From contig JALVYU010000007.1 in the NCBI GenBank assembly GCA_027022365.1, positions 96,001 through 160,000 of the forward strand: 64,000 bases of DNA, given 5' to 3'. Shown one piece after another: positions 3,511 through 64,000 of this stretch. Position numbers and translations under genes: made by a program. This DNA comes from Desulfurococcales archaeon. Its GTDB lineage: Archaea > Thermoproteota > Thermoprotei_A > Sulfolobales > Desulfurococcaceae. The first letter of the stretch is position 1, and each line of letters opens with the position of its first letter. A model generated the notes under the pieces. The model worked only from the letters and a program-made list of their open reading frames with translations, was not told the origin of the DNA and did no database searches.

Positions 3511-3611
3511 ATAGTTTATGGAATCATTAGATACGAACATTACCCGCTTTATTCTTTCCCCATCTTTATTATCTGTTTTCAGCGGGGTGAGCCATAGTTC
3601 GAAAAGCAGAA

Positions 3612-4361: not shown

Positions 4362-4395
4362 GGCCGTAGGTGACACACTCAACAGGTGTACGGTA

Positions 4396-5084: not shown

Positions 5085-5143
5085 CCGTGATCGATTTTCC
5101 CATTTTCGCCTATTTACGTGATCTAAATATTAGAGATTCCCAA

Positions 5144-5157
5144 GTAAAATTTATATA
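5144..5157 (+). promoter_or_regulatory. BRE/TATA promoter of the thermosome gene
   Basis: Purine-rich element followed by TTTATATA (5150-5157); SD GAGGTG before the start codon. Confidence 0.6.
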
Positions 5158-5216
5158 GAAGCGGTTCCCTCAATACTCAAGGGAAATGTATCTAGAGAAC
5201 CTGACGTGAGAGGTGC

Positions 5217-6869: not shown

Positions 6870-6881
6870 GGGAAACACCTA

Positions 6882-6900
6882 TTTTTAGAGCAACTTTTTT
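6882..6900 (+). terminator. Oligo-T terminator after thermosome gene
   Basis: TTTTT and TTTTTT tracts just after the stop. Confidence 0.45.
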
Positions 6901-6980
6901 AAAAGACCTATATCATCCCTATTGTCTAGACTTAAAAATGCTTTCTACATGTTATCGAATTAGTTGATGGGCTGATAGGT

Positions 6981-7292
6981 ATGAATAATGGTGAGCAAAA
7001 CATTTGGCCTAAACGTTTAACTCGATATGAGATCGCTAGATTGATCGGTGCTAGGTCTCTACAGTTATCTCTTGGCGCCCCGCCTCTGATTGATCCAAAT
7101 GAAGCCCCCGTTAAGGATCCTGTTGCAATAGCAATAGTAGAATTATTAAGAGGCCTATTACCCATGACTATTCTCAGGATGAGGCCTGATGGAAGCAAGC
7201 AAGCAATCCCAGCAACTAAGCTCCTCGACGAGATTAATAGAAGATATCTTGAAACCACTCTTAAGAGCTGGACTCTCCATAGAATTTATTAA
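6981..7292 (+). CDS. rpoK: RNA polymerase subunit K (Rpo6)
   Basis: 'LTRYEIARLIGARSLQLSLGAPPL' motif. Confidence 0.95.
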   Translation: MNNGEQNIWPKRLTRYEIARLIGARSLQLSLGAPPLIDPNEAPVKDPVAIAIVELLRGLLPMTILRMRPDGSKQAIPATKLLDEINRRYLETTLKSWTLHRIY

Positions 7293-8313: not shown

Positions 8314-8322
8314 GGGATAGAT

Positions 8323-10494
8323 ATGCCTGCAAAGACAATACTTGATTACCTGAAAAAACATGGTGGAAGGCCTCAGGAGCAGATAAAGTCTGTTAAAGAG
8401 AAAGAAGAACACCGAGAAAAACAAGCGTCTCGAGAAAAAATTGTGTCTAGTAGGCGGAAACCTGAATGGAAGATCAAAATCTGGGATTTAAGGGGAAACA
8501 TCTTAGTCATCGCTGAGAAACCTAAGGCTGCAAGCAAAATAGCGTATGCGTTATCATCTAGGTTCATGAGGAATAGATGGAAAGGAATACCTTATTACAC
8601 GATAAGAAGTAATGGAGCCAATATAATTATTGCTAGTGCAGCTGGACACCTATACGGATTATATACGGATAAACGGGGCTACCCGATTTTCCAATATGAG
8701 TGGAAACCATTATACATCATAGACCAGACAGCTAAGCATACGAAGAAATTCATTGAACTACTCGAGAAACTATCGAGAAATGCCGACTACTACGTAAATG
8801 CTTGCGACTATGATATAGAGGGATCGGTGATAGGTTATCTCATCATAAAGTTCATGGGAGACCCGGATAGAGCCTACAGGGTAAAATACTCTAGTCTAAC
8901 ACCAGCCGAGCTAAAACAAGCATTCAGAGAACTCACAGGACTAGACTATGAAATGATAGAAGCAGGTCTTTGCAGACACGAACTCGATTGGATATGGGGG
9001 ATCAATATCAGTAGAGCACTAATGGACGCAGTGAGAAAGACTTCGGGCAAAAGAACAATCCTTAGCGCGGGAAGAGTTCAGACACCAACACTAAAACACG
9101 TTGTAGATCACGAGATCGAGAGAAATCTTTTCATACCCCTCCCGCTCTTCATACCCGATGTAACAATCATCAAGAATGGAGAAAAAATACATCTAGAATA
9201 CATCTCTGGCTCTCTCGAAACAAGGAGAAAGGCAGAAGAGATCATTAAGAGCATAAAGAAAGATGGATACCTAACTGTGACCGAATATACAGAGAAGACT
9301 ATATGTCTTAACCCACCACCAGCATTCAACTTGGGCGACCTACAGGAAGAAGCCGCGAGAATCTACGGTTTCAGCCCATACAAAACCCAGAAAATAGCAG
9401 AAAAACTCTACCTCGACGCGCTTATAAGCTATCCTAGAACTAATAGCCAGAAACTCCCTCCCACACTGAATTATCGGGGAATAATGGAGAAGCTCGCGGG
9501 GATAGACAGGTATGGTTCTTTAATTGATAGACTTCTGAGGGAGACACGAGGAATACTTCAGCCTGTACAGGGCAAAAAGGACGACCCAGCACATCCAGCC
9601 ATTTATCCCACGGGGTTAAAACCGGGTAAGCTGAGCAGCGACGAATGGAAGATCTACGACTTGATAGTCCGTAGATTCCTGGCGGCGTTCGCTGAGAAGG
9701 CATCGTTGATCCAGCAGCAGGCGCGCTTCATGACTCGTGAAGGCTACGAGTTCCGCGTATCGGGGCAGAGGATAGGCAAGCTTGGATGGCTATATTACTA
9801 CTACTTCTCTAAGCCGAAGGAGAAAAGCATACCAGTTTTTATCAAGGGCGAACACGTACCCATTAAAACAGCTAGGCTACGAAGAACATATACCAGACCT
9901 CCCGAGCGGCTCACGAAAATAAAGATACTGAGATGGATGGAGAGAGTCGAAATCGGTACCGAAGCCACTAGGGCGAGAATAATAGAGTTACTGTTCAGAA
10001 GAGGATATCTTGAGGCGAAGGGAGGCAAGGTAAACGCAACAGATCTTGGGCTAGGAATCATAGAGGTATTGACTAAGTATTTCCCACAGATAACCAGTGT
10101 TGAAATGACCAGGTATTTCGAGGCGAAGATGGAGGCTATCAGATACGGTAGGGCTGAACGCGAAGAAGTAGTTGAAGAAGCTCGCCAAACAATAGTTAAG
10201 CTACTACAGGAATTTGACAGGGTCAAGGACAAGATTGGATACCTCTTATCGATAAGACTGGGGTACATTTCTCCGCACAGAAAATGCCTGGTATGTAGTA
10301 GGGAGGAATACCGCTTGGGGCTATGCTATTACCACTACATGGCATTAGAGAAAATAAGAGAAGCATATAATGAGTGGAACAGGAGAGAAGAGACAACGTT
10401 TGAAAAATTCATATCATCAATCAAGAAGCTGAGATCAACGGGTAAATGGATAACAGAGATCGTAGGGAATGATGAAGTTCTAGCCAAGCTATGA
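8323..10494 (+). CDS. topA: DNA topoisomerase type IA
   Basis: AEKP, DYDIEG, SAGRVQTPTL, ISYPRT (catalytic Tyr), AHPAI and IGTEATR motifs. Confidence 0.95.
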   Translation: MPAKTILDYLKKHGGRPQEQIKSVKEKEEHREKQASREKIVSSRRKPEWKIKIWDLRGNILVIAEKPKAASKIAYALSSRFMRNRWKGIPYYTIRSNGANIIIASAAGHLYGLYTDKRGYPIFQYEWKPLYIIDQTAKHTKKFIELLEKLSRNADYYVNACDYDIEGSVIGYLIIKFMGDPDRAYRVKYSSLTPAELKQAFRELTGLDYEMIEAGLCRHELDWIWGINISRALMDAVRKTSGKRTILSAGRVQTPTLKHVVDHEIERNLFIPLPLFIPDVTIIKNGEKIHLEYISGSLETRRKAEEIIKSIKKDGYLTVTEYTEKTICLNPPPAFNLGDLQEEAARIYGFSPYKTQKIAEKLYLDALISYPRTNSQKLPPTLNYRGIMEKLAGIDRYGSLIDRLLRETRGILQPVQGKKDDPAHPAIYPTGLKPGKLSSDEWKIYDLIVRRFLAAFAEKASLIQQQARFMTREGYEFRVSGQRIGKLGWLYYYYFSKPKEKSIPVFIKGEHVPIKTARLRRTYTRPPERLTKIKILRWMERVEIGTEATRARIIELLFRRGYLEAKGGKVNATDLGLGIIEVLTKYFPQITSVEMTRYFEAKMEAIRYGRAEREEVVEEARQTIVKLLQEFDRVKDKIGYLLSIRLGYISPHRKCLVCSREEYRLGLCYYHYMALEKIREAYNEWNRREETTFEKFISSIKKLRSTGKWITEIVGNDEVLAKL

Positions 10495-49282: not shown

Positions 49283-51043
49283 TTAACCGTAATACTTCTT
49301 AATCGAGAAGCCAGCGAGAAACGCCCCCATCGATATGAGAATTATGGCTATAACATAAAATATCATCTGAGAGACCGGAGGAGACGTTGTTTCCGATCCT
49401 TGTAATAGGTGAATAGTTGAACCACCACATGATATACACGAATATACAGGCACCATATATAACGCCTTGTACATTGTTAACAATGTGAGCTCTGATGTTA
49501 GGAGACCATCTATCGTTGTAAGGTTCTCCATTTCAACAGCATATGTTCTGCCAATATCAACCGTTGTTAATGCCGATAGAATAGGTGTTCCTGACTCATA
49601 TAAAAGATAATTGGCGACCCTTGAAACAGTCTTGTTAAGTTCAACAACGTATTCTGGAGTCAAGTATGGCGAGAAGACAGGGGGTTGTAGGGAAAGAAGA
49701 TCCGATATTAGTATATACTGAATGTAGGCTAGCTTAGCCAATTTGACGAGAACATTGCCTATGTGGTTGATTGTGGATAGAACGTTTATTGTTTGGTTGC
49801 TGATATACTTCATGCTCATAAAGTAGTTAATTGTAATATTTGTGAAAGTATGCAGGGTCTTGTAGGTAGACAACAATGTATTGTAACTGATCATTTTCTT
49901 CTCTATTGATGGAATGCTAGCCCATTGTTTGGCTGTTATGATTCTTGCTAGGGCGAGCACTATTTGAAGGGGAGAACCTGTTGCTTTATATAGTTGGTAT
50001 GCATTCACCGCTATGGAGTATCTAATGAAAGCATTAATGTATATATCGATATTCCAAAGATTTAAATGTCTATACGTGTAATTGCCTAGTTTCTCCAGAT
50101 CCTTGATCGCTTGGGTATAATTTCCGTCGTACCATTTCTCGAGGTGTGCAAGTAGCTCCTTATACTTCGTAGGCGCTCTTTCTTCGAGATAAATGGCGTA
50201 TGCAGATAATGCGTCAATATATGATCTAAAGCCGTAGCTGGCCGCAGTATACCAGTCCCCTTTGTTGGAGTATTTTTCGCTTAACCTGTAGAATTTCCAC
50301 GCCTCACTAGCATATCCTGCAGGGAAAAGAGATAATATATTTCTTGTCAGGTTCAGAAACTCCTTTGTTGCATTAACAAAGAATGATTGATAATTAATTG
50401 TTCTCGGTACAATGATCTCCTGGGTAGAGCCTAGAAGCTTTGTTTTTGTTATGGTATTGTATGCCTCGTAAGCAGTTATAACAGGTATGTAGTTAGTGCC
50501 CGGTATCTTCTCTATGTAGGGTCCAAGAAATAATTGTATGTTCCTCTTAGATGTCGCCTCGTACTTTAGATCAATACCTGAGACATTTCCTACAATAGTA
50601 TTTGGCATCAATATGCCTGTTGCTGAGAAGTCTTCTGGAATAGGTGTATTGGTTAATATCGCTGCGAAGACCAGTGTAAAGGGTAATGTTGCACTTGTCC
50701 CAGCAATATCAGTGTCTTTTGGGAAAATTATCTCGTAGTTATATGAGGATTTTTCTCTCCCCGTCATAATCGATGCAAGACCTAATGCGTACTTGATCGA
50801 TAAGACTGTTGATACAGAGACTTTTCCACCAGGATCAACGATCCGAATATTACCGTTGCCGGGAAATACCTTGATTGTTACCGGAATTACGATCCCTGTG
50901 TTATTGCTGGTTACTGCAGCAAGGTACAGTTTCTCTATACGAATCGGGTAAACATTGAGCGATGATACCATGGTGAATGGTGTCAGCATTGATAGTATAA
51001 GGAGAAATGAAAATATGCATGAAAACATTGTAGGCATTCTCAT
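49283..51043 (-). CDS. Secreted/membrane-anchored Lon-like S16 protease
   Basis: Signal peptide, GTSA (Ser), 'ATG......VG.VSGI..K' (Lys), C-terminal TM segment. Confidence 0.75.
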   Translation of the reverse strand: MRMPTMFSCIFSFLLILSMLTPFTMVSSLNVYPIRIEKLYLAAVTSNNTGIVIPVTIKVFPGNGNIRIVDPGGKVSVSTVLSIKYALGLASIMTGREKSSYNYEIIFPKDTDIAGTSATLPFTLVFAAILTNTPIPEDFSATGILMPNTIVGNVSGIDLKYEATSKRNIQLFLGPYIEKIPGTNYIPVITAYEAYNTITKTKLLGSTQEIIVPRTINYQSFFVNATKEFLNLTRNILSLFPAGYASEAWKFYRLSEKYSNKGDWYTAASYGFRSYIDALSAYAIYLEERAPTKYKELLAHLEKWYDGNYTQAIKDLEKLGNYTYRHLNLWNIDIYINAFIRYSIAVNAYQLYKATGSPLQIVLALARIITAKQWASIPSIEKKMISYNTLLSTYKTLHTFTNITINYFMSMKYISNQTINVLSTINHIGNVLVKLAKLAYIQYILISDLLSLQPPVFSPYLTPEYVVELNKTVSRVANYLLYESGTPILSALTTVDIGRTYAVEMENLTTIDGLLTSELTLLTMYKALYMVPVYSCISCGGSTIHLLQGSETTSPPVSQMIFYVIAIILISMGAFLAGFSIKKYYG

Positions 51044-51052
51044 GGCTCATCC

Positions 51053-51108
51053 TCAGTGTAACACTGATTAATCATAGCACGGCTCATCTTTGCCGGGTGT
51101 CTTCATCG
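51053..51108 (-). ncRNA. Candidate box C/D sRNA
   Basis: Minus strand: GATGAAGA, guide CACCCGGCAAAG, ATGA, C' ATGATTA, guide ATCAGTGTTACA, CTGA. Confidence 0.65.
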
Positions 51109-51238
51109 GTCTAAAATAGTTGTAGTATTTTCTAGCCTTTATAATAACTTCCGCTAAGATGTTGCTATGATCATATAAATTTGTCCTTTGGAATAACACC
51201 TCTTTCTTTTATGGGTTGAAAAACAAGAATAATAATAG

Positions 51239-53068
51239 GTGAGCTTAATGGCCAGTGAGAAAGCGGTGTCCGCAGAGAGCGATATGCCATTCATGATACT
51301 AGCAGAGACATTCGAAAAAATAGAGGTCATATCCTCGAGAACCCAGATGACAGTTCTGCTTGTCAATTTATTCAAGCAGACACCACCAGCTATCATAGAT
51401 AAGGTTGTCTATCTATTACAGGGCAAGCTTTGGCCTGACTGGTACGGTATGCCGGAGCTCGGCATAGGAGAGAAGATGCTCATAAAGGCGATAGCCCTAG
51501 CAACCAATTCTACCGAGTCAGAAGTGGAAAAGCTCTATAAGACCCTAGGCGATCTAGGGAAGGCCGCCGAAAAACTCAGAGCTAAAGCTGAGAAGATAAT
51601 GTCAAAATCCTCGATCCTAGCCTTCGTATCGGTACGTCGCGAGCTCACGGTTCTCCGTGTATATGAGACGTTGTCAAGAATAGCTATGGCTCAAGGAGAG
51701 GGGAGTAGGGACATCAAGCTAAAACTGCTTGCGGGACTTATTAGCGAGGCCTCACCTAAAGAGGCTAAGTACATTGTCAGATTCGTCGAGGGAAGACTAA
51801 GGCTCGGCATAGGTGACGCGACAATAATGGATGCCCTCGCTATTGTCTATGGTGGAGGAGTTCATGCTAGGCCGGTCATTGAGAGGGCATATAACCTCCG
51901 AGCAGACCTGGGTAATGTCGCTAAAATACTTGCAACTCAAGGAATAGATGCATTGAAGAATATAAAGCCCCAGGTCGGAATACCGATCAGACCCATGCTC
52001 GCCGAGAGGCTTAACAACCCGGTGGAAATGCTCAAAAAAGTAGGTGGAAAAGCCTATGTAGAATACAAGTATGATGGTGAAAGGGCTCAGATCCATAAGG
52101 ACGGCGACAAGATCTGGATATATTCTCGAAGACTAGAAAACATAACGAGACAATATCCAGACGTTGTGGAGTATGCGAGAAAATACATAAAGGCTAAACA
52201 AGCCATCGTTGAGGGAGAAATCGTAGCATATGATCCGGAGACAGGCGAGCTAAGGCCTTTCCAGGAGCTAATGCATAGGAAGAGGAAACACGACATACAC
52301 ATAGCGATCAAGGAATACCCGGTAAAAGTATTCCTCTTCGACCTACTGTATGCTGATGGTGAAGACTACACTACGAAACCGTTGCCGATCCGTAGAGAGA
52401 AGCTAAAAGAAATAATCGAGGAAACAGACGTGTTCAGACTAGCTGAATATATCGAGACAAGCGATCCTGAAGAGCTAGAGAAGTTCTTCCTCAAGGCTAT
52501 CGAGGATGGCGCCGAAGGAGTCATGGTGAAAGCCCTCCATGAACGCTCCATATACCAGGCTGGTACAAGAGGATGGCTCTGGATAAAGTATAAGCGGGAC
52601 TATAAGAGCGAGATGATAGACACAGTAGACCTAGTGGTCGTCGGCGCGTTCTACGGCAGAGGTAGAAGAGGAGGAAAGTATGGCGCGCTCCTCATGGCAT
52701 CCTATAATCCCGAGAAGGACGTGTTTGAGACAGTATGTAAGGTTGGAAGTGGTTTCAAGGACGAGGATCTAGACAGGCTGCCCGAGATGCTCCAGCCCTA
52801 TATTATCGATAGAAAGCATCCCCGAGTCGTATCTAAGATGCAACCCGATGTATGGGTTACTCCGGCTCTTGTGGCAGAGATCATTGGAGCCGAGCTAACA
52901 CTTAGTCCTCTGCATACTTGTTGTCTCGACAAGGTAAAACCTGGTGTGGGCATATCGATCAGGTTTCCAAGATTCATAAGATGGAGACCGGATAAATCGC
53001 CCGAGGATGCAACAACGAGCCAAGAGCTTCTAGAGATGTATAAGCGCCAGTTAAAGAAGATTATATGA
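51239..53068 (+). CDS. lig: ATP-dependent DNA ligase
   Basis: [25 protein letters not shown] and RFPRF motifs. Confidence 0.97.
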
Positions 53069-53172
53069 ATAATTTTTGATATAATATTAACTCAAGCACA
53101 TCATATAATTTTTCACCAAAATATCACTTCTACACAGAGAATATCAGCGAGACAGACAATCCAAAAATATGG

Positions 53173-53955
53173 ATGATAACCATGACATACATAGTGGTCT
53201 TCACTGGACCGGCTGGATCGGGAAAAACCACGTTGACAAAAATATATGGTGAATGGCTAAGAACCACTATGTTCTTGAACGTATGTCAGGTAAATATGGA
53301 TCCAGGAGCAGAGATCTTACCCTATAGGCCGTGCCTGGATATACGCGAGTTCATTACCATAAAAGACATAATGAAAGAGCATGGCCTAGGCCCAAATGGC
53401 GCGTTCATGAAAGCTGTCGAACTAATTTCTAAGATAATGGACAAAATAATGAGAAATAAGCCATTCAATGAACCTGAACACTGGGATGTCATAATAGTCG
53501 ATACTCCTGGGCAGCTGGAAGCGTTTATTTTCAGGCCTGAGACTCGTGAAATACTGGAAAGACTGCAGGAGATAGGGAGGACGGTTATAGCGTACCTGAT
53601 TGACTCTTCTATGATAAGAACCTCTACTGATGCTATTACAATGTGGTTTCTAGGAATACTACTTCAAGTTAAAATAGGCATTGACGTGATCCCCGTAATT
53701 ACTAAAGCAGATACACTTAGTAAAACAAGAGAAAACATAGTAAGAAGATTAATAACAAGTCCCGAGAAGCTACTGGAAGACATTAAGGATTCTGAAGGTA
53801 TTGTATCAGATATTCTCCCGGAACTTATCTCAATAGCAGTAAAGACGCGTGGTGCATACCGACCTGTACTTGTATCAATTAATAACCGGGAAAGCATCGA
53901 AGATCTCCATTTTGTGCTTCATGAGGCTGCATGTTCATGCGGTGATCTGACATGA
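53173..53955 (+). CDS. GPN-loop GTPase
   Basis: GPAGSGKT, NMDPG, GPNG, DTPGQ and TKAD motifs. Confidence 0.9.
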   Translation: MITMTYIVVFTGPAGSGKTTLTKIYGEWLRTTMFLNVCQVNMDPGAEILPYRPCLDIREFITIKDIMKEHGLGPNGAFMKAVELISKIMDKIMRNKPFNEPEHWDVIIVDTPGQLEAFIFRPETREILERLQEIGRTVIAYLIDSSMIRTSTDAITMWFLGILLQVKIGIDVIPVITKADTLSKTRENIVRRLITSPEKLLEDIKDSEGIVSDILPELISIAVKTRGAYRPVLVSINNRESIEDLHFVLHEAACSCGDLT

Positions 53956-54069
53956 ACGTGTTACTTAATTATAATTCAACTCCGAATGCATTAGGAACTT
54001 TATCCATTCATAATAAATGATAATAAGCACTATAAATACTCGAATACTCACTAGAAAAATGGGTGGGAA

Positions 54070-54141
54070 CCCCCTTTGACGAACACCCGTTACGGGACAT
54101 GGGGATGATAAGGGGGGCCTTGCGGCCGCCAATACTACTGA
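54070..54141 (+). ncRNA. Atypical C/D-like sRNA candidate
   Basis: TTGACGA, CCCGT/ACGGG hairpin, ATGATAA, GCCTTGCGGCCG (antisense to conserved 16S), CTGA 54138-54141. Confidence 0.45.
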
Positions 54142-54165
54142 AGTCAGTGATGGTGTGAAGCAGAG

Positions 54166-55833
54166 TTGGTCTACAAGCCAAGAACAGGGCTCGAAAAATA
54201 CTATGCAGTTCTCTTCAGGCTTCCCGGCATACCCACTCTTGTAGCAGTAACACTCCTAATCAACATCGCAGCCTATCTAGTCAATAAGCGTGTCTTGTTC
54301 CCAGCTTTCCTCCTCTACATCCTGACGGTTTCTATCATACTCATTTACTCGAAGCTTTTCAATGGCCCATTAAGATACGCCAACAGAATACTCATGGCAG
54401 GTCTACTTATAGAGATATACTCATTGGTACTAATGTTCGTACTTGGTATTAAATATGGCTTAATAGCATCTAGTATTCTCTTAATAATAATAGTTTTAGG
54501 TATAAATGGCACGTCTATTCAGAACTATATCGTGGCAGTGATCCCAGTAATCATTACGTATGTCGTATATTATGGATTTGAACCGATACTATTTATTGGT
54601 ATTACGATCGCCGTACTATTGGATTTCATTATCTACAAGATAATGTCAATTCATAAACTAGCGGGGTACCCAGCCCCCGATCTTGGAACTCTTTTCGTAA
54701 AGAACTGGCTAGATAGGGACAGAGCGATCGAACAGGTATTCAAAGAGATTAGTTCTGAACAACAAGTGAAGCCAAGGATCCTGAAGCTTGGAAACGGGTT
54801 TGTCGTGTACACTGATATACATTATGGGCCGTTCTCAAATGTTGGGAGCAGTATGTTTCCAAGAGTGCTCGAGGAATTATTAAGATATCCCGTTATAGCC
54901 CTTCATGGGGCTGGAAGCCATGATAGGGATGTACCGTCTTTTGATCTCTCTAGGAAATACGCTGAGAAAATAGCGCAGTGTATAAATGGATCATGCGAAT
55001 TTCATGCGTTGAGAGGATATAGCCCATTCAGTATCAAGATTGAGGATGGATGGAAGTTTCTTGTTATACCGTTTGACAAGCTTAACTTAGTGCTCATATC
55101 TAGATCTAAGGGTATAGATGATCTGCCATATGAGTATCAGACTTGGGTCGGGAAAATATGTGAAAATAAACGCCTTCCCGACACGATAATTGTTGATTGT
55201 CATAATCATGAAGTAGAGGAGCCCATGAATTTCGATGTATTGAGAAAAGGCCTAGAACAAGTGATCGGAAGAATAGAAGAGGTCACAACAACCAGTGAGC
55301 CCAAAGAGGTTTTGGGGAGAATAGTTGTTGTTGGAAACATTAGATCACTAGGTGTCATAGGAGATAAAATTTATGGAGTAGACCTTGTCTGGCCTGACGA
55401 GGGTCACCGAGTCGTACTCGTATATATTCCAGGCAATAATATGGAGCCGGGATTATGTGAAAAGATACGTAGAAGAGTAGCTGATCAGCTAAATTTGGAT
55501 ATTAACTATGTTGAAGTCCTAACTAATGATGAGCACACAGAAACAGGTGTTTATTCGTCATCAACATATTATCCGGTCATAGAGACGAGGGAGCTTCTGA
55601 GAGGAATAGATACACTTATTGAGAAGTTGAAAGCGCAGGGTAGCGAATACCATGAAGTCAAATATGCTTTCTTCAAATACACTGTTCCCCTGCTTAACGA
55701 CTCAGCTTATAAACTCGTTGAAATAGTTAAGAAAAATGTCCCCTTATCATCAGTTCTTCTTCTAGGCTATCTGTTCCTAGGACCATTTCTAGTCGGTTAC
55801 ATGACGAGCCTCATAGACTACTTTATTCATTAG
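54166..55833 (+). CDS. DUF2070-family membrane protein
   Basis: N-terminal TM segments; HYGPF..VGSS, HGAGSH, DCHN, GNNM and TNDEH motifs. Confidence 0.8.
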   Translation: MVYKPRTGLEKYYAVLFRLPGIPTLVAVTLLINIAAYLVNKRVLFPAFLLYILTVSIILIYSKLFNGPLRYANRILMAGLLIEIYSLVLMFVLGIKYGLIASSILLIIIVLGINGTSIQNYIVAVIPVIITYVVYYGFEPILFIGITIAVLLDFIIYKIMSIHKLAGYPAPDLGTLFVKNWLDRDRAIEQVFKEISSEQQVKPRILKLGNGFVVYTDIHYGPFSNVGSSMFPRVLEELLRYPVIALHGAGSHDRDVPSFDLSRKYAEKIAQCINGSCEFHALRGYSPFSIKIEDGWKFLVIPFDKLNLVLISRSKGIDDLPYEYQTWVGKICENKRLPDTIIVDCHNHEVEEPMNFDVLRKGLEQVIGRIEEVTTTSEPKEVLGRIVVVGNIRSLGVIGDKIYGVDLVWPDEGHRVVLVYIPGNNMEPGLCEKIRRRVADQLNLDINYVEVLTNDEHTETGVYSSSTYYPVIETRELLRGIDTLIEKLKAQGSEYHEVKYAFFKYTVPLLNDSAYKLVEIVKKNVPLSSVLLLGYLFLGPFLVGYMTSLIDYFIH

Positions 55834-55886
55834 ATATTCAGGAGTATTCTTCTAAGTGCTTAGTGCTTAATTAATTAAATGAGGAA

Positions 55887-55934
55887 GGGAGACCGGCCGG
55901 TATCCGCCGCTCTACCAGGCTGAGCTACGGGCCC
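55887..55934 (-). tRNA. Split tRNA-Lys(CUU), 5' half (exon 55904-55934, trailer 55887-55903)
   Basis: Minus strand GGGCCCGTAGCTCAGCCTGGTAGAGCGGCGG (tRNA positions 1-30), then ATACCGGCCGGTCTCCC. Confidence 0.93.
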
Positions 55935-55967
55935 ATAAGCTCAACCGTATTCTAGTCCCAATTCTGG

Positions 55968-55974
55968 TTATAAA
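55968..55974 (-). promoter_or_regulatory. TATA box of the 5' tRNA half
   Basis: TTTATAA on the minus strand about 33 nt upstream of G1. Confidence 0.6.
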
Positions 55975-56002
55975 CGTATCGACCATTGTTTTTAAGGGAG
56001 TA

Positions 56003-56010
56003 TTTATAAA
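56003..56010 (+). promoter_or_regulatory. TATA box of tbp
   Basis: TTTATAAA about 36 nt upstream of the ATG. Confidence 0.55.
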
Positions 56011-56046
56011 CCATGAGATTGTTTTTAAAAACGGGGGATTTATAAA

Positions 56047-56631
56047 ATGAGCGGGCTAGAAGAGGAGATCTCACTTAATCCTACGACTAAGATAGAGAAT
56101 ATTGTAGCTACAGTAATACTTGACCAGACTCTCGATCTAAATCTGATCGAGAGTCGTGTCCCTAACGTAACCTATCAGCCAGACCAGTTTCCAGGACTTA
56201 TACTTAGACTAGAACGTCCCAAGACAACTGCCCTTATCTTTAAATCAGGCAAAATGGTCGTTACTGGAGCTAAGAGCACAAGCGAGCTCATAGAGGCTGT
56301 TAAGAGAATAATCAAGCTCCTCCGCAAGCATGGGATCAAAATAACATCGAAGCCCAGGATACAGATCCAAAACATCGTGGCGAGCGGGGACATCAACGCG
56401 ATGGTAAACCTTGAAAGAGCGGCATATCTCCTCGAGGATAGTATGTATGAGCCGGAGCAGTTCCCCGGTTTAATCCACCGTATGAGGAGCCCCAGGGTAG
56501 TGCTCTTAATATTTAGTAGCGGTAAAATGGTCATAACTGGAGCAAAGGAAGAAAGAGAAGTCGAGGAGGCTGTTAGAAAGATAGCTCAGAAGCTTCTCGA
56601 ACTAAAATGTCTGTTTCCGAGAAGAGGATAA
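56047..56631 (+). CDS. tbp: TATA-box binding protein
   Basis: Two repeats: NIVA, Y.P.QFPGL and LIF.SGK.V.TGAK. Confidence 0.97.
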
Positions 56632-56670
56632 CCAGGCTAATAAATCCCTTTACATAAATCCTTTTCTTTG

Positions 56671-56732
56671 AATGATGACGTGGGCAGCCTGAGACCCTCC
56701 TACGGGGGATGAAGACCCTAGTCTCACACTGA
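56671..56732 (+). ncRNA. Box C/D sRNA
   Basis: C ATGATGA 56672-56678, guide CGTGGGCAGC, D' CTGA, hairpin, C' ATGAAGA, guide, D CTGA 56729-56732. Confidence 0.8.
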
Positions 56733-56757
56733 CAGGTCCTTCTCGAAGGTGACCTAG

Positions 56758-57192
56758 ATGTTTGTCGAAGGCGTAATCATAGTAGCAGATCTCGATAGAT
56801 TCGACGAGTTTGTTGAAAAACATGGACTCAGCCGATATAGACCTAATATTATCACCGGGACACTGACTCATTTATTCTATAACTTCACCAATAGGTGGCG
56901 GGGAGTTGTTGTTTACGGTCTAGATTTTGGAAGGGGTACTGAAGAAATCATAATAGAGATCCCTATGCCTGATGAGTTGGATGGTATTCTTAATGAGCTC
57001 AAACGAATAAAGAGGACTATTAACGAGCTTGGGGCCTCAATAACTATAGTGGTCGTAAGGGACTATGTGCCATGTAGACCTGCTAGGAATCGTAGGGAAG
57101 CGTATTATGGGACTCCAGGCAGAAGGAGGGCAATCCGCCTCTTAAAAAGTGTCAAACGTAAAGGAGGAAACACTATTTATATTGAGGTGTAA
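56758..57192 (+). CDS. Stand-alone cyclase/GGDEF-like palm-domain protein
   Basis: 'IVADLDRF...EKHG', 'RGTEEI' turn, C-terminal 'L..VKRKGGN'; SD AGGTGA. Confidence 0.6.
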   Translation: MFVEGVIIVADLDRFDEFVEKHGLSRYRPNIITGTLTHLFYNFTNRWRGVVVYGLDFGRGTEEIIIEIPMPDELDGILNELKRIKRTINELGASITIVVVRDYVPCRPARNRREAYYGTPGRRRAIRLLKSVKRKGGNTIYIEV

Positions 57193-57231
57193 GGAAACAA
57201 TATTAGTTTTCCATAATTAATGAGTTACGTA

Positions 57232-57293
57232 GATGATGAGGCCGACATAGTCGGATAAATCCCATAGATTATGAAGAGGGGTCGATTGGCTGA
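57232..57293 (+). ncRNA. Box C/D sRNA
   Basis: C GATGATGA, guide GGCCGACATAGT, D' CGGA, C' ATGAAGA, guide GGGGTCGATTGG, D CTGA 57290-57293. Confidence 0.75.
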
Positions 57294-57466
57294 AAATAAT
57301 TTGTCATTCCAAGTTTCAAGTAATAGTCCGTGTACTCTATATAGATCATGAGTATAATGTTTTATATTGCGAGCAAAATATTGAATGGTAGGTATTAATA
57401 ATGAATTAGAATAAATACCGCCTTGGAACAAAGATGTTTAAGTATTTAATATTTATGGTGTAGATT

Positions 57467-58477
57467 TTGTCTGGCGAAGAGCTAGTTGAGATAAAGGTTC
57501 ATGAAAGACTTGACGAGTTAAGCAAGAAAATTTCTTCAAGTTCTTTTGAGGCCCACATCACTCTTGAAGGCATATTTCAGGGGATCGAGAGAGTAATTGG
57601 TGATAAGATACCACATGTTTTCAAAATGCTTGCGGAAAGATCAAAGGATACATGTATTTTCGATAGAATAAATCTGAAAAGGAGAACAAGTAGTTGGGAC
57701 GAAGTTGTATTACTTCTGTGTAATGGAGTAGTTATCGGTGCACATGGAGAAATTAACGGTCAGAGACTTTATGGCTACAAGCTTTTGGAGCAGCTTTCCT
57801 ATAACGTAAATAATAATGTGTATTCTCATATAATCATAGAAGAGACGCTTCTGCCCTCCGAATTTGTGAAGAAATACCTTAATCTCGAAGGCTTTGAAGC
57901 AAGGAAACAAACGCCCAAACCTGAGGAACGGGGAGCGAAACCAGCCAAGCCCATTGTGAAAGTAGATGCTTATGCTAAAACAACTCAGCTCAATATACCG
58001 ATAGCGTCAACTATTCCTGTCGAAACATCGCTTGATAAGACCAAAGTACTTCCTAGAAGACCGATACCGCCTGGTTTCGTGCCTCCTAAGTTTATCGCTA
58101 TGACGGATACACAGAAGCATGAGGCTGAGGAAGAAGATATAGCCGGATCCAAAAAACCGATGACCATTTACTTAGTTATGAGTCTATCCGACAAGGTATT
58201 GGATCTAAGTAATCGCTTGGTAGAGTTGGCCGAGACCGAGGGCATAGGAGTTTCTTATTCTTCATTATCATATAACGGGACAGCTTACATTCTCGAAACA
58301 AATGTTACAAGAGTTGGATTCATTAGAAAACACGAGAAAATACGTAAGATCGCGGAAAAAATAGCGTCTATCCTTATAGAATGCATGGAGGATTCTCCGC
58401 TAAGGTTTGATCGTGTGATTGTCATCCTTCGTCACGGTTTCGATACTGTTCGTGTTGTGAAAAAAGTATACAGCTAG
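57467..58477 (+). CDS. Hypothetical protein (DUF2226-like N-terminal domain, Pro-rich linker)
   Basis: 'VLLLCNGVVIGA......LYG...LEQL' pattern followed by a Pro/Lys/Thr-rich linker. Confidence 0.6.
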   Translation: MSGEELVEIKVHERLDELSKKISSSSFEAHITLEGIFQGIERVIGDKIPHVFKMLAERSKDTCIFDRINLKRRTSSWDEVVLLLCNGVVIGAHGEINGQRLYGYKLLEQLSYNVNNNVYSHIIIEETLLPSEFVKKYLNLEGFEARKQTPKPEERGAKPAKPIVKVDAYAKTTQLNIPIASTIPVETSLDKTKVLPRRPIPPGFVPPKFIAMTDTQKHEAEEEDIAGSKKPMTIYLVMSLSDKVLDLSNRLVELAETEGIGVSYSSLSYNGTAYILETNVTRVGFIRKHEKIRKIAEKIASILIECMEDSPLRFDRVIVILRHGFDTVRVVKKVYS

Positions 58478-58731
58478 ACAAAGTAGTCGCCATGCTTGTA
58501 TTTCGGGTATTTGTGGAACTATGAATGCTCATATGGGCTCCTTTATCGTAGGATAATGAAGTATAGTGGAAGAGGAGAGAATATGTGATATATCCAACTC
58601 AAGAAATACTGGGAAAAACCAAAGGAATTCCGTGGAAGAAAGGCAAAAGGTAAATAGTAATAATAGAGACGGAGCGGCTTCCCAAATGCTACTAGGTTTT
58701 CGCAATGCCATTAACGTTTAAATAGTCTCAA

Positions 58732-59649
58732 CTATACACCGCATAGTATTAACGCTGTTACTATATCAGAAAAGTCAAGCATTATTACTCTCCTTGTCTC
58801 AAAAATGTACTCCTTAAGACTAAGAAGATCAGATGAAAGTGATAGAAGAGGCGTTTTTAAGGCCTCCTCTGTGAGTGAGCCTTCATCATTAGATAACCAT
58901 GCTACCGGTTTTCCCTGCTCGATTACACAGTACTTCTTAATTATAGGAGATAAGTATTCGGATGCTGAAGGCGTAATAGTAGTTCCTGACTGGTAGGGCC
59001 CGATCGCTGGTACGACTATGACGTAGTTATCTGTTCTGGTTGGGATGAATAAGAATGATGGAAGCTTATATGTACCGAAACATCTCAGGCTCGGATGTTC
59101 GTGGCCGATGATCACAGCATCATATCCAGTTATATCGACGTCTACATGCCCATGTGTTACGAGTATTTTTTCGCTACCTATGTCAATCTCCAATTCTCTT
59201 TGGAGCTCTAGGCCATAATCTCTCAATATCATTCTTAGGAAATTATCGTGATTTCCTCTTATAATCTTTAGATCTTTGATACCTAGGTCATTGAGGATGA
59301 ATTCTAGGAGTTCCCTCGTTTCACGCCGCTCTTGACGTAATAGCCTGTCGAAGGCGTGTTTAAGGTCGCCATTTATGATGATTCTTCGAGGCTTAACTAA
59401 ATTATATATGTTCCTTAAACTTTCCTTGATCTTTTTCAGCTGTATCCTCGGAACAATCATTCCTGGAAAATACTTTGCCGCTTTATCGGAATAGTCCAAG
59501 CCTCGTGCAAGGGCTTCTTCAAAGCCTAGATGTAGGTCATTTATGATAATAGCATCGTATTTGCTGATATATAGTGCTGGCTCACCCGGAATTATGTAAA
59601 TACTCTCGAACGGTATATTCCTAGGTTTGTAGAGCTTCTCATTCATCAT
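58732..59649 (-). CDS. ICC-like metallophosphoesterase
   Basis: DLHLG, NGDLKH, RGNHD, THGH and GHEHP motifs. Confidence 0.88.
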   Translation of the reverse strand: MMNEKLYKPRNIPFESIYIIPGEPALYISKYDAIIINDLHLGFEEALARGLDYSDKAAKYFPGMIVPRIQLKKIKESLRNIYNLVKPRRIIINGDLKHAFDRLLRQERRETRELLEFILNDLGIKDLKIIRGNHDNFLRMILRDYGLELQRELEIDIGSEKILVTHGHVDVDITGYDAVIIGHEHPSLRCFGTYKLPSFLFIPTRTDNYVIVVPAIGPYQSGTTITPSASEYLSPIIKKYCVIEQGKPVAWLSNDEGSLTEEALKTPLLSLSSDLLSLKEYIFETRRVIMLDFSDIVTALILCGV

Positions 59650-59753
59650 TAAATCGGCACCATATATTCATCTAGCAATATATTGCTACATGGTTTGACG
59701 CCTAAGCATTCCCGTAATATCCTCGTGTTCCGTGATAGAAAAGTATGGGCGAG

Positions 59754-59819
59754 CGGGCCCGCCGGGATTTGAACCCGGGACCTACGGGTTAAGAGCCTCG
59801 ACTACCGGCCGGTCTCCCC
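59754..59819 (-). tRNA. Split tRNA-Lys(CUU), 3' half (leader 59797-59819, exon 59754-59796)
   Basis: Minus strand leader GGGGAGACCGGCCGGTAGTCGAG, then GCTCTTAACCCGTAGGTCCCGGGTTCAAATCCCGGCGGGCCCG (positions 31-73, anticodon CTT). Confidence 0.93.
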
Positions 59820-59845
59820 AGGCTCTTCTAGGTATCCCTTCTGGA

Positions 59846-59860
59846 TTATTAAATCTTTCC
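59846..59860 (-). promoter_or_regulatory. BRE/TATA of the 3' tRNA half
   Basis: GGAAAGA-TTTAATAA on the minus strand about 26 nt upstream of the leader. Confidence 0.65.
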
Positions 59861-60903
59861 TATAGCCTCCCTATGGTTCTCCCGATCAGTAGTCCATCTT
59901 GATCCTCAGTAACGTATGCGGCCACAATATCTCCCGGTTTGAGCCTACCTCTCCTGAGGGTTATGAGCCATTCTTTACCCATCGTTACACCAATATACTC
60001 GCCCCTGAATACGCCTCTTGATAGCACCTTTGCATAGACTCTATCACCTTTTTTGAAAGGGGCTGGATAGCGACGTGCTTTCCTCATTCCCCATTCCTCC
60101 AAGCTCCACCTGAGCTTCACTCCGAGTCTTGCCTCGAGCTCCTCTATTTTCTCCCAGAAACAACGCCAGCTCAACGGCTTCACTCCCGGTAGTTTTCTCC
60201 CATACTTATGGGCGTTGTACTTCTGGATCGTCACGGGAGGCCATCTCTTTCCAGCCCCTATCCTTATAGCCCATTTGATAACCTGGACGACATCATCATC
60301 GTTCACGCCGGGAATCCAGACAGGCGTCACATGAAGGTCAATATTTGTTTCTCTGACAAGGTATTCCGCCATCTCCATGACACGTTTAACGTTATACCAA
60401 GGTGTGCCCTGGAGAAAGCGGGCCTTCTCCGGGTTTAGCGTATCTATGCTTAGGTTGATCCTATCGAGGCCTGCATCGTCAAGCCGATCAATAGTTTTTC
60501 TTGTAAGGAGAGCGCCGTGTGTTTCAAGGGCTACACTCGAAACGTATGGACGGGTCTTAAGCTCCTTAATGAGACGTGTTATCCACGGATACGTTAGTGC
60601 TTCGCCAATAGTATCGATGAGCGCCTCTATACTTGTCTCCTTGTACCTCGCCACAATGTCAACAGTATTCAGCAGACCCTCGAGCCCGACAATGAACTCG
60701 GCCCACCTATTAATGGATAATGGACCCGCGTCTACGCTGCAGAAAATACAGCTGAGAGGACATATGGTCGTTGGTCTTACCTGTAGGACATTTGTTCCAC
60801 GATCAATTACTCCAAACCCTATATACCCCAGTAGCTTGTCGCCCTTTACAAAATATAGTGGCCTTCTACCCCAAAGCAGCGTTCTCTCCACGACCTCTAT
60901 CAA
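59860..60903 (-). CDS. Radical SAM protein with C-terminal TRAM-like domain
   Basis: CPLSCIFC cluster motif; 'FGVIDRGTNVLQVRP'. Confidence 0.88.
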   Translation of the reverse strand: MIEVVERTLLWGRRPLYFVKGDKLLGYIGFGVIDRGTNVLQVRPTTICPLSCIFCSVDAGPLSINRWAEFIVGLEGLLNTVDIVARYKETSIEALIDTIGEALTYPWITRLIKELKTRPYVSSVALETHGALLTRKTIDRLDDAGLDRINLSIDTLNPEKARFLQGTPWYNVKRVMEMAEYLVRETNIDLHVTPVWIPGVNDDDVVQVIKWAIRIGAGKRWPPVTIQKYNAHKYGRKLPGVKPLSWRCFWEKIEELEARLGVKLRWSLEEWGMRKARRYPAPFKKGDRVYAKVLSRGVFRGEYIGVTMGKEWLITLRRGRLKPGDIVAAYVTEDQDGLLIGRTIGRL

Positions 60904-61459
60904 GTCTCACACCCATCTGCCTAGCAATTATTTTTGGACAAATAGGCTTTAAAGACAATATAGATGCTTTCGGCTCGCTTAAACCTCTAATGTAAAGGAA
61001 GATTGTCCTAATGATTCCAGCTTCATCGATTATTCTCTTGACAAGCACTGGAGTCCATGACTTAATCGGGAAATCAATAGTTATGATCCGCGTTCCAAGG
61101 GCGAGTTCTCTTTCAAGCTTAGGGGCTAGAGCTTCATTAATGGATGGATAGAGGTATTGATACACTATGGTTGCATTGCCGAGGTATACATCGTAGAAAC
61201 TGGCTTCGAGGACGCCGATACGGTCTCTTAAACCAAGCTCCTCAGCCTTATACCTTATCAGCATGGCTAGATCATGCTCTATCTCCACGGCAATAGCGTG
61301 TGCCCCCATCCTCGCAGCCTCTATTACTACGCGCCCATCGCCTGCCCCTAAATCATACAGTACATCTCCCGGCCCACACCTGGATATTTCAAGCGCCTTC
61401 CTAACAACACTAATAGGTGTCGGTATAAACGGTGGTTTCTTCAAGCTCATTAGGGACAC
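60866..61459 (-). CDS. Class I methyltransferase (protein-lysine MTase, aKMT/FAM173-like)
   Basis: PFIPTP, YDLGAGDGR and YL.P..N..L.PKL..EL..G motifs. Confidence 0.8.
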   Translation of the reverse strand: MSLMSLKKPPFIPTPISVVRKALEISRCGPGDVLYDLGAGDGRVVIEAARMGAHAIAVEIEHDLAMLIRYKAEELGLRDRIGVLEASFYDVYLGNATIVYQYLYPSINEALAPKLERELALGTRIITIDFPIKSWTPVLVKRIIDEAGIIRTIFLYIRGLSEPKASILSLKPICPKIIARQMGVRLDRGRGENAALG

Positions 61460-61583
61460 CGCTGATCTTCATAGTTTCTATTAATAGAATCAAGTTTATA
61501 AAAGAGAGTCCATAGTTTTACTACGGGGATAAAGAAAGAATTGTATTGCGTACTTGTCACTCCCTCTAATGGGGTGTTTATGA

Positions 61584-62552
61584 GTGTCAGAGACATTGCT
61601 AGAAGTGAAGAACCTGAAAACATATTTCTATACCACTAAGGGTGTCGTTAAAGCCGTTGACGGTGTTTCTTTTAAGCTCAACAAGGGCGAGGTCCTGGGC
61701 ATAGCTGGCGAGTCGGGATGTGGTAAGAGCACTACTGCTTACTCTCTCATCAGATTGGTACCTCCACCCGGCAAGATCGTTGATGGAGAACTAATATTTG
61801 AAGGACGCGATATACTGAAGCTTAGTGAAGAGGATTTCAGGAAGCAGATCAGGTGGAAGAAGATATCAATGGTATTCCAGGGAGCAATGAACGCGTTAAA
61901 CCCAGTATACACCGTCGGTGACCAGATAGCAGAAGTGCTGATGCTCCACAAGCATATGACCAAGGAAGAAGCAATGAAGGAGGTTTACAAGCTCCTAGAA
62001 ATGGTAGGCATAGATCCCAAGCGCGCCAAGAGCTATCCACATGAGCTCTCGGGCGGTATGAAGCAACGTGTAGTAATAGCAATGGCCCTAGCGCTAAGAC
62101 CGCCTCTAGTAATTGCGGACGAGCCGACCACGGCTCTCGATGTCGTTGTCCAAGCACAGATCATGAACCTGCTCAAGAGATTGCAGCGTGAGCATCAGAT
62201 GTCGATAATTCTGATCACCCACGACCTCAGCCTCATTGCGGAGATGGCTGAGAAAGTAGCGATCATGTATGCTGGTAAAATAGTTGAATATGGTACTGCG
62301 GAGCAGGTATTCCTTAATCCGCAGCATCCGTACACCAGAGGTCTACTGGCTAGTATTCCGAGGCTAACGGGTGATATACACAAGCTGGAATTCATACCTG
62401 GCGTACCACCAGACCTATCGAATCCACCGCCTGGATGCCGTTTTGCCCCGAGATGTAAGTTCAAGTTTGAGCCCTGTGATAAAGAAGAGCCGCCCGTAAT
62501 AGAGGTGGAGCCCGGTCACTATGTGTCTTGTTGGCTCCACGCAAAGAAATAA
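61584..62552 (+). CDS. oppD: Oligopeptide ABC transporter ATPase
   Basis: GESGCGKS, LSGGMKQR, ADEPT, HPYT and C-terminal Cys domain. Confidence 0.92.
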   Translation: MSETLLEVKNLKTYFYTTKGVVKAVDGVSFKLNKGEVLGIAGESGCGKSTTAYSLIRLVPPPGKIVDGELIFEGRDILKLSEEDFRKQIRWKKISMVFQGAMNALNPVYTVGDQIAEVLMLHKHMTKEEAMKEVYKLLEMVGIDPKRAKSYPHELSGGMKQRVVIAMALALRPPLVIADEPTTALDVVVQAQIMNLLKRLQREHQMSIILITHDLSLIAEMAEKVAIMYAGKIVEYGTAEQVFLNPQHPYTRGLLASIPRLTGDIHKLEFIPGVPPDLSNPPPGCRFAPRCKFKFEPCDKEEPPVIEVEPGHYVSCWLHAKK

Positions 62553-62565
62553 AGGGTGACCATGT

Positions 62566-63708
62566 ATGCCCAACATATATGTTCCCAAGCCTAGTAGTGA
62601 CACCGTCGTATACGTTAAAGACCTGCGCACATGGTTCCCTGTAAGAAGAAGCTTCATCGACGTCATTAGGAGACGTCCTCCCCTCTACGTACACGCCGTT
62701 GATGGCGTATCCTTCGACATAAAAGAAGGTGAAACCTTTGGTCTCGCCGGAGAATCCGGATGTGGTAAAACCACAACAGGTAAGACTATCCTCCGCCTCG
62801 TAGACCCTGTCGGGGGAATAATCGCTTACAGGCCGCGTGAAAGGCTCTTAAAGGAGTGGGAAGAGATAGGCTATCATCCAAAATTCATCGATCAGTACAA
62901 GAGCGTTGACATCTCAAAAATACCTAGCAAGTATCTGAAACCACTACGTAAAGAGATGCAGATGATATTCCAGGATCCGTACGGCAGTCTTAACCCGAGA
63001 TTCACAGTCTACAAGATACTCGAGGAACCACTTGTTATACACGGCATCGGTGAAACTAAGGAGGAAAGATACGATCTAATTGTGCGTGTACTGGAGCAGG
63101 TAAAGCTGACACCACCCGAGGAGTTTCTGAACAGATATCCACACATGCTCTCGGGTGGCCAGAGACAGAGAGTAGGTATTGCCAGAGCATTGCTGCTACA
63201 GCCGAGATTCATAGTAGCGGACGAGCCCACCTCGATGTTGGATGTGTCAATACGTGCAGAAATACTCGAGCTAATGATGGAGCTGAAGGAGAGGTACAAG
63301 CTGACCTATGTGTTCATCACACACGACCTCGCATTGGCTAGATATATCTGTGACAGGATCGCCATAATGTATCTAGGCAGAATAGTCGAGATGGGTAATA
63401 CACGCCGCGTTCTGGAGAACCCGTTGCACCCATATACAAAAGCTTTAATATCAGCGATCCCGGAGCCTGACCCGAGATACAGGAAGATCCTTAGAGAGCT
63501 TCCGATAAAGGGCGAAGTACCTAGCCCTATCAACATACCACCGGGATGTAGGTTCAGGCCTAGATGTGTAACATATGATAAGACAACCGAGATACAGAAG
63601 TACTGTGAGACAGAAGAACCGCCGCTGATAGAAGTCGAGAAAGATCATTACGTATCCTGCTGGCTATATGGTACACCTGAGGAGGTACGGGAGCTAATAA
63701 AGAAGTAA
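62566..63708 (+). CDS. oppF: Oligopeptide ABC transporter ATPase
   Basis: [18 protein letters not shown] and LSGGQRQR motifs. Confidence 0.92.
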
Positions 63709-63717
63709 TCTTCTTTG

Positions 63718-63999
63718 CTAAGTATACTCATATTTTTGGGTAGATACAAGATACAACAAGTTATAGCTCTTGAGGCACGGTTGTTTCTTCTTTTGACCAT
63801 ACGGAACCTTAGTTAGCGTGTACTGCACTAGTAATTTGAACATCAGAGCTAATGATACTAGTGCAGCTATCATTCCCGGGATCGCTAGGAATGATAGTTT
63901 GTGCTCATAGCCACTAATGTATATGGTAATATTAACTGTGCAGTCTCGGCCAGTAACTGATCCGATAGTTATGACCGAGTCGAGCGACGATATGGGATA
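63718..63999 (-). CDS. C-terminal part of a membrane protein (5' end outside window)
   Basis: Open frame of 93 codons with TM segment 'LAIPGMIAALVSLALMF'; stop at 63718-63720. Confidence 0.5.
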   Translation of the reverse strand, partial: YPISSLDSVITIGSVTGRDCTVNITIYISGYEHKLSFLAIPGMIAALVSLALMFKLLVQYTLTKVPYGQKKKQPCLKSYNLLYLVSTQKYEYT

Positions 64000-64000
64000 C

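Follow-up and report, generated by a model that had tools for sequence, protein, structure and literature searches.

Split transfer RNA (tRNA) genes are rare and are missed by gene finders. The closest described counterpart of the locus presented here is the split tRNA-Lys(CUU) gene of Staphylothermus marinus and S. hellenicus (Chan, Cozen & Lowe 2011, Genome Biol 12:R38, PMC3218864). According to the available text of that paper, the two halves lie on one strand with the 3' half upstream, 4.8 kilobases (kb) apart by the coordinates in Table 1 (the text gives 4,500 nucleotides, nt), and each genome features one split tRNA. The precursor and mature forms of the halves measure ~48/31 and ~65/43 nt, ligation takes place between positions 30 and 31, and the motif is a canonical hBHBh' (helix-bulge-helix-bulge-helix) with 13-nt trans pairing (PMC3218864). 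Here we describe a locus of the same kind in the window, a 64,000-nt stretch of a Desulfurococcales archaeon genome (GCA_027022365.1, contig JALVYU010000007.1; C7:96001-160000 in our numbering) that is assembled in 44 contigs and is 99.97% complete. We consider it very likely that this locus is a functional, trans-spliced split tRNA-Lys(CUU) gene and the ortholog of the Staphylothermus case.

Both halves are encoded on the minus strand, with the 3' half transcriptionally upstream, which agrees with the reversed order proposed in the initial annotation of this DNA. The 5' exon (55904..55934) covers positions 1-30 of tRNA-Lys(CUU) in 31 nt, as it has one extra D-loop nucleotide, and is followed by a trailer (55886..55903) that consists of a bulge A (55903) and a 17-nt strand of the intermolecular helix (55886-55902). 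The 3' exon (59754..59796) covers positions 31-73 in 43 nt, including the anticodon CUU and the discriminator G, and CCA is not encoded after it. Its leader (59797..59819) comprises a helix strand (59803-59819), the GUCG that enters helix H2 (59799-59802), and the bulge A G (59797-59798). The exactly complementary parts are TACCGGCCGGTCTCCC in the trailer (16 nt, 55887-55902) and GGGAGACCGGCCGGTA in the leader (59803-59818), the latter followed by GTCGAG (59797-59802). In a scripted comparison, the reverse complement of the trailer equals the leader in 16/16 nt, as had been claimed, and the helix extends to 17 base pairs (bp) when the terminal G-U pair 55886/59819 is counted. This 16-mer occurs a single time per strand in the 1,742,253-base genome.

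When the exons are joined by their coordinates, ARAGORN recognizes a tRNA-Lys(ctt) with a complete cloverleaf, in which the acceptor stem has 7 bp and the anticodon stem 5 bp with a single G-U, so that the cloverleaf first drawn from these two segments stands. On the unjoined window ARAGORN finds 0 tRNAs, and an Rfam cmscan of 50000-64000 at E<=1 yields as its sole match an 18-nt T-arm-like piece (59762-59779) assigned to transfer-messenger RNA. Both null results are expected because the gene is split, and an automatically annotated genome would therefore seem to be without a tRNA-Lys(CUU).

The annealed halves were also written out pair by pair as a bulge-helix-bulge (BHB) motif, and all pairs of its helices H1, H2, and H3 are standard. 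H1 pairs AGAG of the 5' exon with CUCU of the 3' exon (positions 32-35), H2 pairs CGGC (positions 25-28) with GUCG of the leader over 4 bp with one G-U, and H3 is formed by leader and trailer over 17 bp. GGA (3 nt, cut G29 G30^A) makes up the 5'-strand bulge and AGG (3 nt, cut AG^G31) the 3'-strand bulge. An archaeal BHB is cut after the second nucleotide of each bulge, and it is by this rule that the 5' exon ends at G30 and the 3' exon starts at G31. The canonical BHB and the 30/31 junction of the initial annotation are thus confirmed.

The halves appear to be the sole source of this isoacceptor in the assembly. The initial annotation had called for a search for an intact tRNA-Lys(CUU) gene elsewhere in the genome, and none was found by any of four approaches. 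ARAGORN makes 46 calls on the whole genome, with Lys(ttt) present and no Lys(ctt) among them; RF00005 has 45 genome matches, none of which falls at another Lys(CUU) locus; a BLAST search of the 3' half against its own genome matches only itself and the UUU gene; and a regular expression for the Lys(CUU) anticodon arm plus T arm has one genome match, which is the 3' half. AAG makes up 57% of Lys codons (8332 AAG vs 6302 AAA in 412 long open frames). The genome also encodes the processing enzymes, namely two EndA-family frames (PF01974, 104.5 and 40.6 bits) and two RtcB genes (PF01139). We infer that the two EndA frames form a two-subunit crenarchaeal endonuclease of the alpha2-beta2 type. One RtcB gene (C26:388867-390171, minus strand) and the weaker EndA frame (C26:391845-392081, minus strand) lie ~1.7 kb apart, near a tRNA-Pro gene (C26:393520-393631), and the second RtcB gene is found at a contig end (C29:2021-3283). 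The other EndA frame is at C26:594618-594869.

Each half was searched against 63 genomes from the 22 genera of the window's family, which are numbered g1 to g22 here; the window belongs to g1. Two single-contig genomes of g17 (G033 and G034) carry the halves at the coordinates published for S. hellenicus and S. marinus, as given in the available text (PMC3218864), and the 3'-half query aligns to both from leader position 5 at 92% (BLAST). In g1, the 3' half and its leader are present at 99-100% identity in 6/6 genomes, and in 5/6 the same contig also carries the 5' half, at a distance of 3.66-3.87 kb downstream; in the sixth, which is 69% complete, only the 3' half was found. Based on tblastn searches with nine window proteins, the gene order in g1, g17, and g8 is ATP_bind_1, DUF2070, 5' half, TATA-binding protein (TBP), hyp144, hyp336, phosphoesterase, 3' half, radical SAM, hyp197, and ABC. 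From the shared gene order, exon sizes, junction, half order, and homologous leader and trailer, the window locus is recognizable as the ortholog of the published Staphylothermus locus. The initial annotation had named Staphylothermus as a reported case of split tRNA-Lys(CUU), which is correct, and the relationship to that case is one of direct orthology.

The two loci are alike in exon sizes (31/43 nt), the 30/31 junction, the hBHBh' motif, half order and strand, and the flanking and intervening genes, and they share a homologous 12-bp helix core whose register is the same. They differ in host genus within the same family (g1 vs g17), in the distance between halves (3.9 kb here vs ~4.8 kb there), in the length of the helix (16-17 bp vs 13 bp), and in an H2 pair that is G-U here and G-C there, as far as the available text of the 2011 paper allows the comparison (PMC3218864). 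In addition, hyp144 is on the other strand in g17, as it is in g8, and g17 has ~1.4 kb of additional DNA that is missing here. Part of the Staphylothermus synteny may already be contained in Figure S2 of Chan et al. In the accessible portion of the literature on split tRNA-Lys(CUU) in this order, the two Staphylothermus species are the only ones named (PMC4390854, PMC8450103, PMC7080975; subscription journals lie outside this scope).

The comparison across genera provides the strongest argument that the halves pair in vivo. The 31-nt 5' exon and the 3' exon are identical in all split genomes compared, while leaders and trailers vary between genera. The continuous helix has 17 bp in g1, 16 in g10, 17 in g8, 14 in g4, and 22 in g16; the anchored helix finder returned 2 bp for g17 and g12, where there is a small internal loop by the BHB, and the g17 helix thus rests on the 12-bp core and the published 13 bp. 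Within this core, 144/144 cells are paired in 12 genomes from 6 genera, and two-sided, compensatory changes have occurred in 5/12 core pairs across the 6 genera. The register of the core was chosen by maximal pairing, which is a bias, yet it is identical in 12/12 genomes and ends 9 nt before the exon. These compensatory changes argue for function.

It could be proposed that the two pieces are dead remnants of a rearranged tRNA gene and that tRNA-Lys(UUU) alone reads AAG. A tRNA-Lys(UUU) gene is indeed present (C26:528685-528759) and differs by ~2 bases from the joined tRNA, and the evidence on the halves comes from DNA. Such an origin is nonetheless highly improbable, as at least 6 genera have identical exons but co-varying leaders and trailers, the BHB is retained in every split genome compared, the region upstream of the 3' half is better conserved than the adjacent coding sequence, and AAG is the majority Lys codon.

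For the functional split gene, we infer transcription from two promoters followed by cleavage and ligation. Two short RNAs would be transcribed from the minus strand, a 3' half of ~66 nt (23-nt leader and 43-nt exon) and, encoded ~3.8 kb downstream, a 5' half of ~49 nt (31-nt exon and 18-nt trailer). Leader and trailer would anneal over 16-17 bp and draw the exon ends into the helix-bulge-helix-bulge-helix motif, at which point the heteromeric crenarchaeal splicing endonuclease would cut both 3-nt bulges, after G30 and before G31. RtcB would then join the exons, and CCA would be added later.

The initial annotation assigned a TATA box to each half, and this assignment is well supported for the 5' half and only moderately so for the 3' half. 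The TATA-like element of the 5' half, GTTTATAACC (55966..55975, minus strand), begins 41 nt before the mature 5' end, close to the median position of -39 at which the word type TTTATAACC occurs at 45 other tRNA genes of the genome. It was identified by reading the upstream sequence as opposed to being chosen by the promoter matrix, whose best site for this half is a second one at -63 (score 10.6); the matrix is crude, being derived from 45 upstream regions, and its scores are weak evidence only. For the 3' half, the element GATTTAATAA (59846..59855, minus strand) is located 26 nt before the leader and 4 nt past the TAG stop codon of the radical-SAM gene (59860-59862). GATTTAATAA is unchanged in 5/5 aligned species of the genus, and the whole spacer before the 3' half is nearly invariant in the same species while the upstream coding sequence varies. 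It is likely, judging from this conservation, that the 3' half has an independent promoter. Putative transcription stops, read from sequence only, are a T-rich stretch after the trailer (55865..55885, minus strand) and the T-run CTTTTCT downstream of the 3' exon (59737..59743, minus strand).

Four protein genes lie between the halves. The TBP gene (56047..56631, plus strand; Pfam TBP, E 6.8e-64) adjoins the 5' half in all split relatives examined. It is followed by hyp144, a conserved hypothetical protein of 144 amino acids (56758..57192, plus strand) with no Pfam match and 58-92% identity in relatives, and by hyp336, a hypothetical protein of 336 amino acids (57467..58477, plus strand) with no Pfam match that is syntenic in relatives. 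The fourth, a calcineurin-like metallophosphoesterase gene (58732..59649, minus strand; Pfam Metallophos, E 1.6e-6), is directly downstream of the 3' half.

This arrangement bears on the possibility of a long-range permuted tRNA, in which a single transcript would start at the 3' half, continue for 3.9 kb as far as the 5' half, and mature via a circular or lariat-like intermediate. The order of the halves on one strand is compatible with it, as are the position of the phosphoesterase gene, which comes after the 3' half in the same orientation, and the weak score of the well-positioned putative 3'-half promoter. We regard a permuted transcript as very unlikely, because three of the four intervening genes (TBP, hyp144, and hyp336) are on the opposite strand, a T-run follows the 3' exon, the 5' half has its own well-placed TATA box, and in relatives the spacing of the halves ranges from 3.6 to 15.7 kb with differing intervening content. 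The permuted tRNAs of Cyanidioschyzon merolae and those of Thermofilum pendens (iMet and Tyr) resemble this locus in having the 3' part upstream on the same strand and a BHB; according to the available text on them, they are made as one transcript of <150 nt with a junction at 59/60 and a circular intermediate (PMC3218864), unlike the window locus, where protein genes on both strands separate the parts.

It is barely credible that the separation is an artefact of assembly or binning and that the real gene is contiguous or has an ordinary short intron. The genome is in 44 contigs, and pieces from public sequencing runs end inside both exons, where word depth rises 10- to 70-fold. This rise is attributable to exon words being common to other tRNAs of the community. 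In favor of a true separation, 4 other g1 genomes show the identical arrangement, and the two single-contig g17 genomes carry it at the published coordinates. At least half of the sampled words of 55700-59950 are present, in near-identical DNA, in ten public DNA runs from four studies, those of the ten that are labelled being hydrothermal-vent metagenomes. In four runs, each from a different one of four studies, contigs cover the stretch and link each half to the same neighbors on both sides. Furthermore, the leader and trailer are sensible only for a split gene. Joints between the exons with other letters between them (90% likeness) were also encountered in the runs at much higher depth; these fit other tRNA genes of the community and are uninformative for this organism.

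Several observations weigh against a functional trans-spliced gene and have to be set beside the evidence above. The minimum-energy dimer of the two halves (ViennaRNA, 37 C) is register-shifted, at -80.3 vs -68.0 kcal/mol for the BHB conformer, and H2 contains a G-U here vs a G-C in the other split genera that have a GCCG leader. The score of GATTTAATAA in the promoter matrix is 1.4, which beats 1/45 tRNA promoters, and because of this low score read-through from the radical-SAM gene into the 3' half is possible. An intact copy could in principle be located in an assembly gap between the 44 contigs. AAG might be read by tRNA-Lys(UUU), so that the split tRNA may be dispensable. Among the 16 public runs containing the stretch there are no RNA datasets (0/16), and the experiments described in the available text of the 2011 paper deal with tRNA-Asp of Aeropyrum, with none on the Staphylothermus Lys tRNA (PMC3218864).

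Beyond Staphylothermus, two other types of tRNA-Lys(CUU) gene are comparable. Nanoarchaeum equitans has a split tRNA-Lys(CUU) (Randau et al. 2005, via PMC3218864) that shares the isoacceptor, the 30/31 junction, a BHB, and complementary leader and trailer; by the available text and Table 1 of the citing paper, its halves are ~70 kb apart on opposite strands, and six tRNAs, this one included, are split in that reduced genome, which is from a different phylum. The tRNA-Lys(CUU) genes with a cis intron, which occur in relatives and in other Thermoproteota, are also interrupted at 30/31 and have the same type of 3' BHB strand, G-N-C/U-G-A-G before G31. These are single transcription units with a normal exon order, whereas here the parts are permuted and 3.8 kb apart.

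Within the family, the split form is found in 11 of 22 genera. In six of these (g1, g4, g8, g12, g16, and g17), a single contig carries both halves, with the 3' half upstream and a distance of 3.6-15.7 kb between them; the halves of g10 and g21 are on different contigs; and g6, g13, and g22 are classed as split from the 3' half and a homologous leader only. In g15 and g2, the halves are in normal order and separated by 299 nt (G030) or ~400 nt (G001). The former (G030:C1:854000-863000, 4568-4950) features a 23-bp leader/trailer helix with one G-U, and the latter (G001:C13:12000-21000) has its halves at about 4257-4700. Each of these is a 30/31 intron of unusual length or else a pair of adjacent transcription units, and the arrangement looks like an intermediate between intron and split. 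A short 30/31 intron occurs at the same locus, upstream of the phosphoesterase gene, in g3 (35 nt in 3/4 genomes, the fourth being intact) and in g7 (32 nt). The intact gene of G005 (g3), vs the intron in its three congeners, indicates a recent and precise intron loss. The gene is intact in g5, g11, g14, g18, g19, and g20, and g9 is unclassified. One g18 genome (G037, 99% complete) has no match to the Lys(CUU) anticodon-loop/T-arm pattern.

The genomic context of these forms is shared. At every locus examined (21/22 genera, with g9 left out), the tRNA or 3' half adjoins the phosphoesterase gene, which is downstream on the same strand except in g18 (G035 and G038), where it is divergent. In the unsplit g2, g3, g7, and g15, TBP follows the phosphoesterase gene downstream of the tRNA, and the unsplit relatives of the intron clade have hyp336, tRNA, phosphoesterase, TBP, and hyp144, all in one direction. 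Conversion of the unsplit to the split gene order would require either a block interchange and an inversion or three inversions. Two loci deserve separate mention. In G060 (C82 and C16), halves with a 20-bp helix are on different contigs with ancestral flanks, as the 5' half follows hyp336, and after the 3' half come the phosphoesterase gene and then TBP; in G002 (C23), the 5' half is ~200 nt from a contig end. They may reflect splitting that took place a second time, independently, or else an intron that contains a repeat or mobile element.

Interruption at 30/31 is not confined to this family. A collection-wide scan for Lys(CUU) 3' exons without the normal stem base before them gave at least 119 matches, from which 80 loci were fetched. 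A 13-35-nt interruption at 30/31 with the conserved 3' BHB strand is present in 66 of the 80 fetched loci, and the record titles of the scan loci name Bathyarchaeia, Sulfolobales, Desulfurococcales, Thermofilales, and others. The remaining fetched loci comprise one Pyrobaculum interruption of 541 nt, three with the 5' half downstream, one false match, and nine without a 5' half in the locus, including two bacterial chance matches and two at contig ends. The 30/31 intron is thus old and widespread, and the split is best viewed as having come from it. Two scan loci, L098 (Desulfurococcales archaeon) and L103 (Thermoprotei archaeon), have a Lys(CUU) 3' exon preceded by unrelated G+C-rich leaders, and no 5' exon was found within 6.1 kb (L098) or 2.7 kb (L103) upstream. 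They may be further independent split genes.

The history of the split was approached with a RpoB tree of 41/63 family genomes that was rooted with 20 genomes drawn from 12 other families, a quick single-gene analysis under LG+G4 that omits four genomes without a match at E<=1e-20 and 18 others (11 of them g20). The intron and adjacent-half genera, with g11 and g21, form one clade (support 99), and every syntenic split genus belongs to a second clade (29 rows, support 100). In the latter, g1 is the first branch, followed by g22 (93) and then by g17+g8 (97), and the split genera g16, g13, g6, g4, and g12 are sister (99) to a clade with intact genes only, consisting of g14, g18, g19, g5, and g20. 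Forcing a single clade on the 13 syntenic split rows is 403.6 log-likelihood units worse (p-AU 0.00025 in the approximately unbiased test), for a group that was named after the tree was seen. A phosphoesterase tree, which is unrooted, has a weak backbone, and serves as a consistency check only, places the split lineages between the intron and intact clades.

The gene order of one intact genome is of particular relevance to this branching pattern. In G040 (g19), G040:C1:188000-207999 (positions 2749-9890) reads ATP_bind_1, DUF2070, TBP, hyp144 ... phosphoesterase (minus strand), tRNA (minus strand). This is the split type of order with an intact tRNA-Lys(CUU) at the 3'-half site, and the 86-nt DUF2070-TBP spacer contains no 5' half. 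The simplest reading of these data, to which we give an even chance, is that an ancient 30/31 intron gave rise to the split a single time, at the base of the clade, and that the split was later repaired in a nested clade. It would follow, with the same balanced confidence, that g1 is the earliest surviving branch, that the split has been kept in at least 10 genera, and that splitting is reversible. The repair would have taken place at the old 3'-half site in the clade of g14, g18, g19, g5, and g20, a point on which we are equally divided. Our confidence is no higher because the basis for repair is one long gene, one short gene, and one case of synteny. Repair could have occurred via gene conversion by the near-identical tRNA-Lys(UUU) or via recombination with a copy of the spliced tRNA. 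The alternative of four independent identical splits, in place of one split and one repair, fits poorly because the leader and trailer are shared. In 2011 the origin of the split was proposed to be "relatively recent," in the available text of that paper (PMC3218864), and a single old split contradicts this proposal.

The window locus itself adds one more genus to the described case. Within one family, its relatives form a graded series at a shared syntenic position, from the intact gene through a 30/31 intron of short length and halves separated by ~300-400 nt to permuted halves with 3.6-15.7 kb between them, and they also include a candidate split gene that was made whole again (G040). This series is relevant to the long debate on the ancestral or derived nature of split tRNAs, and it supplies genomes for testing the question. 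If the repair reading is true, tRNA gene splitting is reversible.

A few further features of the tRNA set were observed in the source genome. No His, Glu(ctc), Ala(tgc), or Gln(ttg) tRNA is called by ARAGORN, whose anticodons for intron-bearing archaeal tRNAs are unreliable. ARAGORN also reports a "tRNA-Stop(tta)" with a 21-nt intron (C26:586448-586544) and a tRNA-Phe with a 666-nt intron (C26:324429-325169).

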